Counted from the first letter of the stretch, positions 5,738-64,000 are shown. The stretch is 64,000 nt of DNA from Promethearchaeota archaeon (GCA_030599585.1 JAUVNS010000008.1:64001-128000); one strand, 5' to 3'. Notes: generated by a model from the letters alone, not told the origin. Numbers and translations are program-made.

Positions 5738-5863
5738 TTGGATGATAAAGAAGTCGGTAGATATTGGGACGAAAATGCAGAAAACTGGATTAAACTAGCA
5801 AAGTTGGGATATGATCGATGTCCCTATTTTTTGATTACACGCTGTCGGAAACCAAAAATATAG
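5738..5863 (+). pseudogene. Internally deleted class I SAM methyltransferase remnant (41 aa)
   Basis: TTG start after an AGGTGG SD. Translation MDDKEVGRYWDENAENWIKLAKLGYDRCPYFLITRCRKPKI joins a typical methyltransferase N-terminus (YWDENAENW) directly to a typical C-terminal strand (PYFLITRCRK), with no SAM-binding motif between them. Confidence 0.55.
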
Positions 5864-5957
5864 TCTTTTACGAAAAACTTCGTGAAAGGTGTGTTTCACG
5901 ATCTGTTTACAGATGTTCAAAGAATAAAAAAAAAATAGTTAAAATTTTTATGATTTA

Positions 5958-59762: not shown

Positions 59763-62423
59763 CTAATACGATGGCATTATAAATAAAGAAATAGGAAAAA
59801 ATGGAATAAAAAAACTAATAGGTAAAAAAATCGTTAGTATAAATATAGAGATTAATCCAGGTAGGAGGCTTCCGGTTTTTAAATAAATATATCCTAAGAT
59901 TAAGCTAATAAAGCTTGAACATATAAAATCTAAAATAACTAATGATATAATATAGGAAGATGAAACACCGGGAGATATATATGAAAAAATGGGAATGATG
60001 TAGACGAAGGCTTTTACGATGATAGTGATGAAAGTTTGCAATAATAGCGCCCATAATTGGGAGTATTTACCTACTAACATTGTTAGAATGATACCGCGAT
60101 GTAGTATCTCCTGCCAATAACAAAAAGTAAAAAGAGTTAATAAGATAACTATTATCTGTAAGTAACTTAAATTCAGTGAAGGTAAGTCTAATATTGCTTG
60201 AGTTATGAAGTAGATAATGAAGATCGAAGGAATAGTAAATAATATTGCTTTAATATGCTTTTTAAAAAAATTACTTTTCACCCAACTTAACCCTATGCAA
60301 TCTAAATATTGTTTAAACGGTTGTTTCCCATATGGAAGTCCAACATACTTAGGAATGACATATAACCATATAAAACCATAAAGAAGATTTGGTACTAAGA
60401 TAATTAATAAATTTTGAATTAACAATTTCAGATCTTCACTAAAGGAACGCGGGAGAAAAAAGGGATATGGGTCTATCATGGAAGAAAGGATTGCCATAAC
60501 TAAACTTATAAGAAAAAACAATAAGAAATTGATGATAAGTAGGATTACTATTGATAACCAAATATGTTTAGAGAATATTGTTGGGACAATATTTTTTTTA
60601 AGCGTTTTTTCCCTTGAAAAAAAGTCCTTATTAAAATCAGTCCATTTAGTTATGAGCCCTCCTTGATAAACTGGCAACATTATGTTAAAAATTAAGACTG
60701 AAATTAAGAATCCTAATACTATTACTGCCCAAAATAGAACCAACATACTATTGCTATCCTGGTGGTATAAAAAATTTATCCCAAACGATGTTATCCAAAA
60801 AAAAAGGATGTATGGCACAGAGATAATCAATGTCCATTTATACATTCGGTTTTTTGGATTATAATCTTCTAACACGTAAAATTTTGCTCTCTTTTTTCCG
60901 AAGAAGTTGATTTTTAAAATAAAAATGATTAATAAAAATAACCAAGCAAAGGGTAATGTGAAAAGGAAATTAATGAAGATAGATACAAAATTTGGAGAGC
61001 TAAGGTAAAGTAAAGATGGTAAGAGAGTTGCGCATGTTTGGATAAAATAGATTAATAATAATTTAGGTTTTGCTTGGTTTCGTGGAATTAGTGGTAAAGC
61101 GGCTATAATCGATTCTCCCCGATTATCAAAATTAGTTAAACCATAAACTATTAATCCTGAAAGAATAGGGCTAAAAGTTAATATACCAATCCAATTTTGG
61201 AAGAACCCTCTATCAAGTAGATTTATTGTTCCGATATCTTTAATCCCAAATGCTACGATAAAAATAAAAGAAAGCATTATCGGCATAATAATTGACATAA
61301 AAACTTTAAGATCTCTTGTAATTATGCGAAGATCCTTGCGAATATAAGCAATAAACGGTACACTAGGTTTTACATTCACTTTCACTTCTAAATGAGATGG
61401 TTTAGTAGTTTTTATTATGTTGATAGCTTTAAGCTTTGAAACGCTAATTCTCTCAATTGCTTTAAACGCTTTTCTAGATATCCCATATGTTATTATAACT
61501 AATAGTGCAAATCCAATTAGAGTACTTATCCAAAGTTGGAGAGATGCATGATTAGGCGCGATTAATAAAGAAATTAAAAAACTAGAATTAAATGGGAAAG
61601 GAATAAAACTCAAAATAATATTAATTATGGATTGGTATTCGGAAGCTGTAAATATAATGTAAAACGTCTCTATTGAGCTAAGGAACCATTGAATCAAAAC
61701 ATAACTACTGATGATGATAAAAATGTAACTCAGAATATTGATTAAGCGAATAAATAAAGTTCTTTTTGAGCTCTTATCATTTATATCTAAAATTCTATTT
61801 ATTCTTTCTCCAAATAATAATAAAATGCTAAATGATAATATCATATTCACAAAAGAAATTCCAAGGCATACCAAAAAAATTACTATATTTTGACTTCCAA
61901 TTAACATAGTAATCGGAAAGGCAAAAACTAAAACAATTATTGGTAAATCATAACTTCGAAATAAAGTAAAATAAACTATTCTCAAATATTTTCTTTTTGA
62001 AATGGGTAATGTCTCGAACCACTCAAAAATTTTCCCTGAGGTTATCATTGCTGTATCCAACATCCCCATTACAAAAAAACTTAGAAACTGTAAAGAAAAA
62101 TAAAAGGAAAAAAGTAAACCTCCTATAAAATAAACACCTTCAATTGATGTCGAACCCTGCGAAATAAGTCTGACAATTTCGAAATAGGTTAATAAAGGAA
62201 GTACAGGTATTATTCCAAATGTGATCGCAAAAAATAATTTTGTTAAAATAACTTTAAATTTTAGTCTAAACGGATGGCGGATATATTTTTCTAAATAGTA
62301 AGATTTAGCTCCTCCCTTCGATAATACTAATTCTTCAACAAGCAATTCTTTACTTGCATATTTTGCTAAACTAAATGATGTAAGAACCTCTTCTACCTTT
62401 AGATTTCTTCTTTTTATCTTCAT
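59763..62423 (-). CDS. Large polytopic membrane protein: ABC-permease-like region fused to a degenerate CPBP/Abi domain
   Basis: LPIS..., AYIRKDLRIITRD and ALPLIPRNQAKPKL permease-like motifs. C-terminal WQEILHRG and GYIYLKTGSL resemble CPBP motifs 1 and 4 but lack EE and His. Confidence 0.65.
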   Translation of the reverse strand: MKIKRRNLKVEEVLTSFSLAKYASKELLVEELVLSKGGAKSYYLEKYIRHPFRLKFKVILTKLFFAITFGIIPVLPLLTYFEIVRLISQGSTSIEGVYFIGGLLFSFYFSLQFLSFFVMGMLDTAMITSGKIFEWFETLPISKRKYLRIVYFTLFRSYDLPIIVLVFAFPITMLIGSQNIVIFLVCLGISFVNMILSFSILLLFGERINRILDINDKSSKRTLFIRLINILSYIFIIISSYVLIQWFLSSIETFYIIFTASEYQSIINIILSFIPFPFNSSFLISLLIAPNHASLQLWISTLIGFALLVIITYGISRKAFKAIERISVSKLKAINIIKTTKPSHLEVKVNVKPSVPFIAYIRKDLRIITRDLKVFMSIIMPIMLSFIFIVAFGIKDIGTINLLDRGFFQNWIGILTFSPILSGLIVYGLTNFDNRGESIIAALPLIPRNQAKPKLLLIYFIQTCATLLPSLLYLSSPNFVSIFINFLFTLPFAWLFLLIIFILKINFFGKKRAKFYVLEDYNPKNRMYKWTLIISVPYILFFWITSFGINFLYHQDSNSMLVLFWAVIVLGFLISVLIFNIMLPVYQGGLITKWTDFNKDFFSREKTLKKNIVPTIFSKHIWLSIVILLIINFLLFFLISLVMAILSSMIDPYPFFLPRSFSEDLKLLIQNLLIILVPNLLYGFIWLYVIPKYVGLPYGKQPFKQYLDCIGLSWVKSNFFKKHIKAILFTIPSIFIIYFITQAILDLPSLNLSYLQIIVILLTLFTFCYWQEILHRGIILTMLVGKYSQLWALLLQTFITIIVKAFVYIIPIFSYISPGVSSSYIISLVILDFICSSFISLILGYIYLKTGSLLPGLISIFILTIFLPISFFIPFFPISLFIMPSY

Positions 62424-62880: not shown

Positions 62881-63080
62881 AGTTTTATTTTCACCCTTGT
62901 GTGTTATTTTATAATTTCATTCTTTGTTATTTAACCATTTTGTTACCCTTCTATTTGATATAAAAAACTGAAGTGAGAATGTGTTCCGGAGTTTTTATTG
63001 ATTTTTTAAAATATAAAAAGCTTTAGAGAAAAAAGGTTCGAAAATAACATTTTAAAAATAAAGGTTAAAAAAAAAATAAT

Positions 63081-63155
63081 TTAATACCTTACTGCGGCAA
63101 TATGATATCCCGTTGGGTTTAGGATTGATTTGGCTCCCTTTTCTTTTCTTTTCAT
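63081..63155 (-). CDS. 24-aa micropeptide C (MKRKEKGAKSILNPTGYHIAAVRY)
   Basis: ATG..TAA, 75 nt. GAGGT at 63164-63168 sits 8 nt before the ATG. Followed by a T-tract on the coding strand. Confidence 0.75.
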   Translation of the reverse strand: MKRKEKGAKSILNPTGYHIAAVRY

Positions 63156-63250
63156 ATTCTTTTACCTCGTTTTTTTAATTTGGTTTTGTTTTGTGTAGTA
63201 TTTGTCGTTAAATTGTGAATTTTTAATTATTCTAAAAAAAATTATAATTA

Positions 63251-63325
63251 CTAAAATATATCAAAACGGTCAGGAATATATCCTGCGTTTCTGATTATTA
63301 TCGTTCTTTTCTCTTTTTCTTCCAT
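63251..63325 (-). CDS. 24-aa micropeptide B (MEEKEKRTIIIRNAGYIPDRFDIF)
   Basis: ATG..TAG (then TAA), 75 nt. GAGGT at 63334-63338 sits 8 nt before the ATG. Confidence 0.75.
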   Translation of the reverse strand: MEEKEKRTIIIRNAGYIPDRFDIF

Positions 63326-63389
63326 CTTTTTTTACCTCGCTTTTTATTCTTTTTTTTATTGGTTTAAAAAATATTAAAAAAAATTTATA

Positions 63390-63464
63390 TTAAAATCTAA
63401 AAACTAAATTCTCTGGATTGAAGTTTTTCGTAAATTTAACTTCTTTTACTCTGGTTTTACTCAT
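63390..63464 (-). CDS. 24-aa micropeptide A (MSKTRVKEVKFTKNFNPENLVFRF)
   Basis: ATG..TAA, 75 nt. AAGGAGGT SD with GAGGT at 63473-63477, 8 nt before the ATG. Confidence 0.75.
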   Translation of the reverse strand: MSKTRVKEVKFTKNFNPENLVFRF

Positions 63465-63723
63465 AAGCTTTTACCTCCTTTTTTTTTTTTTTATTTTTTA
63501 TTTTTGTTATTAAATTATAATATCCATAAAATCCATATTTAGTTTTCAGATCAAAACTCTGAATGGACTTTTAAATATTTATTGAACTGTATTAGGAAGA
63601 AATCGATTTGGCAGGGTAAACGACATCAAAAATAGCAGAAATTAAGAATTCAAAAAAACAATAAAGGATCGTTATTTACATCGACAGATAAACTAAGTGA
63701 GAAATAACCAAAATTCCAGAGTA

Positions 63724-64000
63724 TTAACGGTATAAATTGGTCCCTCTTCCTAATATTTCTTTCACAACTCGTTTGTTTGCCTGAAAAGGATTTATAATCT
63801 TCTTTTTTGGAAATTCTAAAGGAGGTGTAAAGACTTGTTCTTTTTCGATCAGTAAATTATAGGCTTGATGTAAGAGAAACTCGAGATTGATAACGTCTTC
63901 GTTGTTATAGGCAAGCAATGTATCAAGATATTCTTTCTCTTTAGTTTGTTTATATTTTTTCCACAAGAGCACAGCAGAATAGCCGTCCAAGTCTTCAAGA
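63724..64000 (-). CDS. C-terminal part of a YprB/RNase_H_2-like exonuclease (5' end outside the window)
   Basis: DGYSAVLLW...LLAYNNEDVINL matches the YN.EDV motif of this family. Confidence 0.75.
   Translation of the reverse strand, partial: LEDLDGYSAVLLWKKYKQTKEKEYLDTLLAYNNEDVINLEFLLHQAYNLLIEKEQVFTPPLEFPKKKIINPFQANKRVVKEILGRGTNLYR

Follow-up and report, generated by a model that had tools for sequence, protein, structure and literature searches.

Tandem micro-protein genes genetically coupled to a family of wHTH/TPR regulators in Loki-type Asgard archaea

In the Rgg/SHP and ComR/ComS systems, the peptide genes encode about 17–35 amino acids, are usually unannotated, and begin with a charged N-terminus. 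The psm-alpha operon of Staphylococcus aureus consists of tandem genes for peptides of about 21 residues, each with its own ribosome-binding site, and its products (PSMs) are amphipathic helices that act as secreted cytolysins under the control of AgrA. RRNPP-type peptide–receptor systems are known from Bacillota and the mobile elements of these bacteria (PMC10075063, PMC9765709). The archaeal genes analysed here resemble those of Rgg/SHP, ComRS, and PlcR/PapR in that a tiny peptide gene adjoins, and is often divergent from, the gene for a cytoplasmic regulator of HTH plus TPR-type repeats. They further resemble Rgg/SHP and ComR/ComS in the several paralogous pairs per genome and in the fast, lineage-specific diversification of the peptides. 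With psm-alpha they share the tandem arrangement of micro-genes that fall below annotation cut-offs, each with its own translation start.

The stretch of DNA that we analysed—hereafter called the “window”—comprises 64,000 nucleotides of a Promethearchaeota archaeon (GCA_030599585.1 JAUVNS010000008.1:64001-128000). Near its end, three ORFs of 75 nt each, including the stop codon, lie on the minus strand and encode 24 residues each: A (63390-63464), with the core motif NFNPENL and a final F; B (63251-63325), with the core RTIII...GYIPDRF, which belongs to the best conserved subfamily; and C (63081-63155), with the core ILNPTGY and a final Y. All three have an A-rich leader, and in each the Shine–Dalgarno (SD) motif GAGGT stands 8 nt before the ATG (minus strand; 63473-63477 for A, 63334-63338 for B, and 63164-63168 for C) and is extended to GAGGTAAAA. 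Runs of T on the same strand begin 4–10 nt past the stop codons, with 8 T after A (63376-63383), 8 T after B (63234-63241), and 10 T after C (63067-63076). These oligo-T tracts are probable archaeal terminator or pause signals, and each peptide gene is probably bounded by its own. A preliminary description of the window had reported the three 24-codon ORFs with their peptide sequences, the identical initiation geometry with its T-tracts, and the residues common to B and C (K4, E5, K6, I11, N13, and a GY); recomputation from the sequence reproduced all of these exactly.

The 3′ end of the 16S rRNA in this genome is GGATCACCTCCT, and GAGGT is therefore a true complement of the anti-SD sequence. 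Only 3.3% of the ORFs of at least 150 residues in the whole genome have GAGGT between positions -17 and -3. Counted over both strands, the 4.85-Mb genome contains 112 instances of GAGGT-N8-ATG, hardly more than of the neighbouring spacings; this corresponds to about 0.005 expected per 400 nt of one strand, as compared to the three seen here. Because of this rarity, three occurrences within 400 nt are far beyond chance, and we infer that each ORF is translated from its own strong SD site.

Are these ORFs genes? A genome-wide scan for SD-led short ORFs found a second full A-B-C cassette (C22:128964-129384), just outside the window and about 1.9 kb from the window cassette, as well as two A-B pairs, one on contig C34 and the other on contig C45. 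(A weak A-like match on C26 was rejected, as it lies inside a gene.) Between the two full cassettes, A is 71% identical (17 of 24 residues in the second copy, A2), B 77%, and C 62% (C2). Orthologs of A with 23–26 residues are present in G002, G005, G016, G013, G081, G106, and G148, and those of C in G002 (22 residues, through an in-frame 6-nt deletion), G005, and G047. A DNA search and a profile of the B family together detect cassettes in many species of the same genus, and the A-B-C order is unchanged wherever all three occur. The products have 22–26 residues throughout the family (32 in one A subfamily), and nearly all members have RAGGT 7–9 nt before the ATG and an oligo-T tract afterwards. 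The B profile, built from nine members, gives 27 matches at E < 1e-3, all in one genus; 26 of them are free of internal stops, with stop-to-stop frames of 23–34 codons, while about 110 genomes of other genera yield no credible match.

The pattern of sequence change also bears on this question. In a four-species alignment, the indels within the ORFs are of 6 nt and those in the spacers of many other lengths; the oligo-T tract is invariant, and B and one spacer block are highly conserved at the nucleotide level. In metagenome contigs from other sediments, which are short and are interpreted here for the parts that they cover, 1-nt indels are confined to the spacers, and C carries a 6-nt deletion, the in-frame one of G002 recurring in one contig. 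In B, the diversity at third codon positions is 0.405, as compared to 0.205 and 0.218 at the first and second positions, while A and C have little third-position excess. Pairwise pN/pS values range from 0.2 to 1.8 on very small counts, and are near 1 between the two cassettes. From these comparisons, we regard the three ORFs as real, unannotated micro-protein genes, and their family as one kept as coding sequence yet fast-evolving, mainly in the charged N-terminal part.

When A, B, and C are aligned, they display one architecture. The initial Met is followed by 6–8 residues rich in K, R, E, and N, then by a hydrophobic strand of 4–5 residues, and then by a turn of the [GAS]-[FY]-N-P type or of the form N-P-T-G-Y. 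The peptides end in a hydrophobic-charged-aromatic C-terminus, which is their most constant feature. In most members, a central N-P or another proline stands 5–10 residues from the C-terminus; several subfamilies have no proline. The sequences of A, B, and C contain neither a signal peptide nor a long hydrophobic stretch. They match no Pfam family, the locus has nothing near the threshold in Rfam, none of the exact 24-residue products occurs among about 15 billion predicted proteins, and a search of the ESM Atlas for this system gave no match. A reading as C/D-box small RNA was rejected by eye, as the boxes differ between the two cassettes. The locus occurs in DNA metagenome runs from sediments and cold seeps, with no RNA run among those listed. 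The peptide family is confined to one family of Loki-type Asgard archaea. The preliminary description had proposed that selection acts on a family of peptides whose length and SD spacing are conserved: A, B, and C indeed form three conserved subfamilies in a fixed order across species. Its expectation of conserved homologues held for ORF, length, SD, and triplet indels, and found little support in dN/dS, with pN/pS spread from 0.2 to 1.8 on tiny counts. Its remark that this is not a described archaeal system agrees with the lack of Pfam and Rfam matches and with our literature searches, which turned up no report of such a module in Asgard archaea.

What accompanies the peptide genes? We regard the second cassette, just outside the window, as the ancestral one. 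In at least seven loci, each from its own species, it is divergent from the gene for a wHTH/TPR regulator of about 988 residues (L001:5910-8876 in this genome), and by coordinates it is adjacent to the regulator in six more genomes. The Pfam scan of the regulator, with 31 matches and no RRNPP-specific family among them, places two winged helices of the HTH_45/MarR type at residues 23–168 and TPR families at about 580 to 960. In an AlphaFold model of residues 185–580 (mean pLDDT 77), one more winged-helix-like unit is followed by a disordered linker and by TPR helices. Foldseek returned weak, generic TPR matches for this model (E about 0.01); those of the first TPR units include the C-terminal-peptide binders HOP TPR1, PEX5, Tah1, and Sec72, and no RRNPP receptor appears in the top 50. 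A sequence search of the PDB with the regulator gave no match. The regulator family has 391 database homologs at E <= 1e-5, and the best 120 of them (from Promethearchaeota/Lokiarchaeota MAGs) are, where named, called only “TPR”, “winged helix”, or “hypothetical”. A search of three genomes from the sister family yielded no member of the regulator family.

Between the ancestral cassette and the regulator lies a conserved ORF of 89–95 residues that begins with M-A-Q (in this genome on the minus strand at G000:C22:129461-129745, or L001:5461-5745, 1.5 kb past the window end). The MAQ family as a whole has 70–95 residues, starts with M-[AV]-Q, and stands between the regulator and the peptides in most modules. 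Its 112 database clusters are, where named, labelled only “hypothetical protein”; a few homologs carry a recorded PF27216, and a version of Pfam that lacks this entry gave no match for MAQ. MAQ is predicted to end in one long helix (pLDDT 84–91 over residues 50–90). A complex prediction for residues 190–988 of the regulator with the 95-residue MAQ scored 0.00, a value that favours neither outcome. We considered whether the peptides are the C-terminal tail of MAQ in stand-alone form, and rejected this: just one of nine cognate pairs (G146) scored above shuffled sequences, and the MAQ tail is predicted to be helical.

The divergent promoter between the regulator and MAQ contains a perfect palindrome, GAAGTTCG-N2-CGAACTTC (G000:C22:129839-129866, L001 about 5839-5866), accompanied by further GAAGTT half-sites. 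The palindrome occurs nowhere else in the genome, is conserved in G005, and is therefore the likely operator. Two genes for alpha/beta-hydrolase, peptidase-like proteins (S33 and S9-type matches) and one for an MFS transporter lie 5–8 kb from the ancestral cassette in six species. We also note a 376-residue protein with a gelsolin repeat and SAP/HeH/Ish1-like C-terminal motifs, a eukaryote-like domain mix, whose gene (L001:8909-10039, minus strand) adjoins the regulator in six species. Leucine-rich-repeat (LRR) proteins are encoded on the far side of the cassette in two genomes (L025:8351-9439 in G002 and L032:4782-6572 in G014), and the G002 protein also has a winged helix (HTH_45) and is thus a second type of repeat-plus-wHTH protein encoded beside the peptides.

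Since synteny among close relatives is weak evidence, we examined the paralogs of the regulator, drawing on the upstream DNA of 20 paralogs from other species and 12 from a second genus. The family has 2–8 copies per genome in the genus, with a clear break between orthologs (at least 64% identity) and paralogs (at most 55%). In two genera, paralogs that are only 45–55% identical come with SD-led, diverged peptide genes of their own on the divergent strand. In many of these modules, a MAQ-family gene (70–95 residues) starts about 220 nt from the regulator start, and in most of them, a peptide ORF of 22–28 codons with SD and oligo-T starts about 510–525 nt from it. The paralog modules with peptides are those of G019/G017/G009/G048, G082, G146, G022/G001/G065, G014:C8, G122, and G084. 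Their peptides have diverged in sequence and kept the architecture; they include a group ending in NPAYIMY (four species), three further types in genus g1, and two in g12. In three modules (G005, G014:C8, and G122:C30), MAQ is missing, and the regulator is faced directly by the peptide genes.

The background of ORFs that pass the same filter is 0.033 per kb per strand, and with stricter, family-like criteria the whole genome contains three non-family ORFs. Against this low background, at least six independent paralog groups with a peptide in the same geometry are therefore not a coincidence. The position beside a receptor thus holds for the ancestral cassette and for at least six paralogous regulator groups in two genera, and not for the window copy. 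The co-occurrence is found mostly within one genus, and many instances are therefore orthologous rather than independent. The remaining four regulator paralogs of this genome lack a peptide cassette of this kind, and three of its four peptide loci, including that of the window, are far from any regulator. A supposed peptide upstream of two paralogs (L057 and L058) was rejected, as it is the C-terminus of a 71-residue MAQ protein.

Among the paralogs of this genome, two on contig C21 face different genes. One, of 637 residues, is divergent from a gene for a 183-residue Rab/Ras-like GTPase, followed by an SD-led ORF of 18 codons (G000:C21:101955-104224; the cassette of GTPase and 18-residue ORF spans C21:101955-102772). 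This module shares with ours the wHTH/TPR regulator family and a divergent cassette ending in a tiny SD-led gene, but has the Rab-like GTPase instead of MAQ, and its micro-protein has no sequence relation to A, B, or C. The other, at C21:115873, faces a MAQ-like ORF of 65 residues that begins with M-T-Q-A-Y.

How, then, did the window cassette come to stand alone? It is 77% identical to the ancestral cassette at the nucleotide level and has neither regulator nor MAQ as neighbours, and by this comparison we take it to be a recent, lineage-specific orphan duplicate that has lost these neighbours and gained a different promoter block. Some metagenome contigs join both cassettes across the 1.9 kb, which suggests a single cassette in related populations. 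Upstream of A lies a conserved non-coding block (63478-63588, minus strand) with putative promoter and operator roles, which contains the inverted repeat AGTTTT-N6-AAAACT (63541-63558) and a TATA-like AT box near 63503-63524. A block of about 100 nt with these elements (AGTTT-N6-8-AAACT and the TATA-like box) is common to the window cassette, the C34 and C45 loci, and their orthologs; in this genome, its motif occurs at the three peptide loci and in one unrelated match. The C34 pair lies between genes for a CCA-adding enzyme and an aEF-2-type GTPase, and the C45 pair near a HAD hydrolase gene. The upstream regions of aEF-2 orthologs in five genomes of other genera hold no peptide genes.

The flanking genes differ among the four loci of this genome, and those downstream vary from membrane genes and RNase_H_2 to an aEF-2 paralog, a HAD hydrolase, and an LRR protein; unlike leader peptides or attenuators, the cassettes have no single conserved downstream gene. 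The two cassettes on C22 are separated by a 299-residue RNase_H_2 (PF13482) gene on the minus strand (window 63724-64000, on to L001:3724-4623), which is context only. It belongs to a multi-copy unit of about 0.93–1.0 kb, with copies on C12, C38, and C19 (about 88% nucleotide identity) and a fragment on C30, and this repeated unit may be mobile. Synteny with this gene, suggested earlier as a check, was not borne out: it is near the cassettes in the locus of this genome only, and is absent from the cassette loci of relatives. A microsatellite of the (TTTTG)n type, about 60 nt long, lies on the minus strand between the second cassette and RNase_H_2 (L001:4770-4835).

Downstream of the window cassette is the gene for an 886-residue polytopic membrane protein (59763-62423, minus strand), whose residues 756–858 match Rce1/CPBP marginally (22.9 bits against a cut-off of 22.4), and which overlaps the stop codon of a 39-residue membrane ORF by 4 nt. 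A functional link of the peptides to the 886-, 99-, and 39-residue membrane genes downstream or to RNase_H_2 was rejected, as none of these is near the cassettes of relatives. Pfam scans of the neighbours at the window and ancestral loci contain no RiPP maturase. Further SD-led micro-ORFs came to light elsewhere. A 13-codon ORF (M-P-I-F-K-L-K..., with an AAGGT SD-like site; L006 2674-2715, plus strand, and L007 2311-2352, minus strand) is conserved in both G002 and G005, where it lies about 1 kb from the cassette. Others with A-rich leaders encode a very basic protein of 39 residues on C24 (minus strand, rc index 369030) and a hydrophobic, single-helix peptide of 28 residues on C39 (rc index 6758). 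These last two suggest that hidden small genes elsewhere can also be recognised by GGAGGT with an A-rich leader.

What the comparisons show directly is that the genes exist, that they are conserved, and that they are linked to the regulator family across its paralogs; together, these findings suggest an undescribed archaeal peptide–regulator circuit. Translation, binding of the peptides to the TPR domain, and the regulatory effect are the steps that we infer. We propose, at a probability of about 0.5, that the peptides act within the cell as partners of their cognate TPR regulators, docking by their C-terminus and feeding back on the shared promoter. The home module of the family consists of a regulator, with a long TPR array and two to three winged helices, and of a divergent cassette that encodes MAQ and one to three peptides of 22–28 residues. 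TPR domains are peptide-binding modules, and most likely the hydrophobic-charged-aromatic end of the peptide docks on that of the regulator. The docked peptide would then alter the action of the regulator at the shared divergent promoter, closing a feedback circuit with the logic of the Rgg/SHP or PlcR/PapR systems. Orphan cassettes, such as that of the window, may serve as extra, separately controlled inputs. We more tentatively consider a wider reading, in which this would be the first peptide–receptor signalling in Archaea, with TPR regulators each tuned to their own 22–28-residue peptides, the pairs diversified like bacterial pherotypes, and the orphans adding inputs.

The linkage itself fits a target as well as a ligand, since divergent gene pairs commonly consist of a regulator and its target. 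The peptides might thus be only a regulated output of the wHTH/TPR regulators, effectors that do not bind them and have targets of their own, as antagonists or as inhibitors or adaptors of, for instance, some other protein with affinity for a hydrophobic-charged-aromatic C-terminus. The pairing of the same regulator family with other cassettes (the Rab-like GTPase with its 18-residue ORF) and the conserved promoter block that the orphan cassettes have of their own at three loci speak for such an output, and the rapid sequence change, with pN/pS near 1, is in keeping with peptides that are antagonistic or driven by interactions. Nevertheless, no conserved candidate target, immunity gene, or transporter is found beside the cassettes, and the regulators have no evident ligand domain other than the TPRs, which as a class are peptide-binding modules; we consider this account rather unlikely.

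The peptides may, with a still smaller chance, be precursors that are cut after the central proline, so that a C-terminal signal or natural product of 5–10 residues is exported and sensed again, as in quorum sensing. Mature RRNPP peptides are C-terminal fragments, and most members have the proline at a suitable place, but it is missing from several subfamilies. The peptidase-like hydrolases and the MFS transporter near the ancestral cassette could provide processing and export, but they are conserved only as part of orthologous synteny; similarly, the window copy is followed by the 886-residue membrane protein with its weak CPBP/Rce1 match, but neither this gene nor the 99- and 39-residue membrane genes are near the cassette of any relative. 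There is no adjacent RiPP maturase, and the sequences lack a signal peptide or long hydrophobic stretch, while remaining compatible with leaderless export. Finally, it is highly improbable that the SD-ORF-oligo-T units are untranslated cis-regulatory or small-RNA elements (attenuators or ribosome-binding decoys) with chance frames in AT-rich DNA, for although A and C have little third-position excess and B and one spacer block are highly conserved as nucleotide sequence, dozens of copies that differ by 25–60% in their proteins retain the frames, ATG, and stop, 26 of the 27 significant B-family matches are open, indels are multiples of three in the ORFs and not in the spacers, B has a twofold third-position excess, the differing downstream genes leave no common attenuated gene, and Rfam gives no match.

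No closer relatives of eukaryotes are known than the Loki-type Asgard archaea, about whose regulatory biology, to our knowledge, almost nothing has been established. The peptide genes described here are invisible to standard annotation, and yet form a conserved, multi-copy, fast-diversifying family that is coupled to a lineage-specific expansion of TPR regulators. If this coupling reflects binding, the peptides would be the first candidate ligands for these regulators, and peptide–receptor regulation, so far a matter of Bacillota and mobile elements, would extend to Archaea. If the peptides are also exported, these archaea, the prokaryotes most closely related to eukaryotes, would have peptide quorum sensing. 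In practical terms, a strong SD together with an oligo-T tract is a flag for hidden micro-genes where a genome rarely uses SD.

How does the proposed module compare with the known systems? In contrast to psm-alpha, the peptides here are highly charged, have a central proline, and are linked to TPR regulators. Among solved structures, the first TPR units of the regulator come nearest to the TPR “carboxylate-clamp” domains (HOP TPR1 with the Hsp70 tail, Tah1/Sgt2/Sec72, and PEX5 with PTS1), through matches that are weak, with E about 0.01, and of a generic kind for units of three TPRs. These clamps bind extreme C-termini, and the C-terminal end is also the most constant part of our peptides, which nevertheless have no EEVD-like or SKL-like motif. 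As compared to Rgg/SHP and ComR/ComS, the host is archaeal, and the regulator is larger (640–1000 residues), with two or three winged helices in place of an XRE-type HTH and a much longer TPR array. An extra MAQ protein, up to three different peptides per cassette, and orphan cassettes are further differences from these two systems, as are the hydrophilic peptides, which have no export-competent hydrophobic part, and the absence of a conserved exporter, protease, or importer nearby. The regulator bears no sequence relation to the RRNPP receptors (Rap/Rgg/NprR/PlcR/PrgX/AimR) and no clear fold relation as compared on residues 185–580. Membership in RRNPP fails on receptor homology, export signals, and taxon, while the Pfam matches and the model agree with one RRNPP hallmark, a cytoplasmic protein in which TPR-type repeats are fused to a DNA-binding domain. 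By analogy, the peptide genes and the TPR regulators would thus form a module of RRNPP-like logic, built from unrelated parts.
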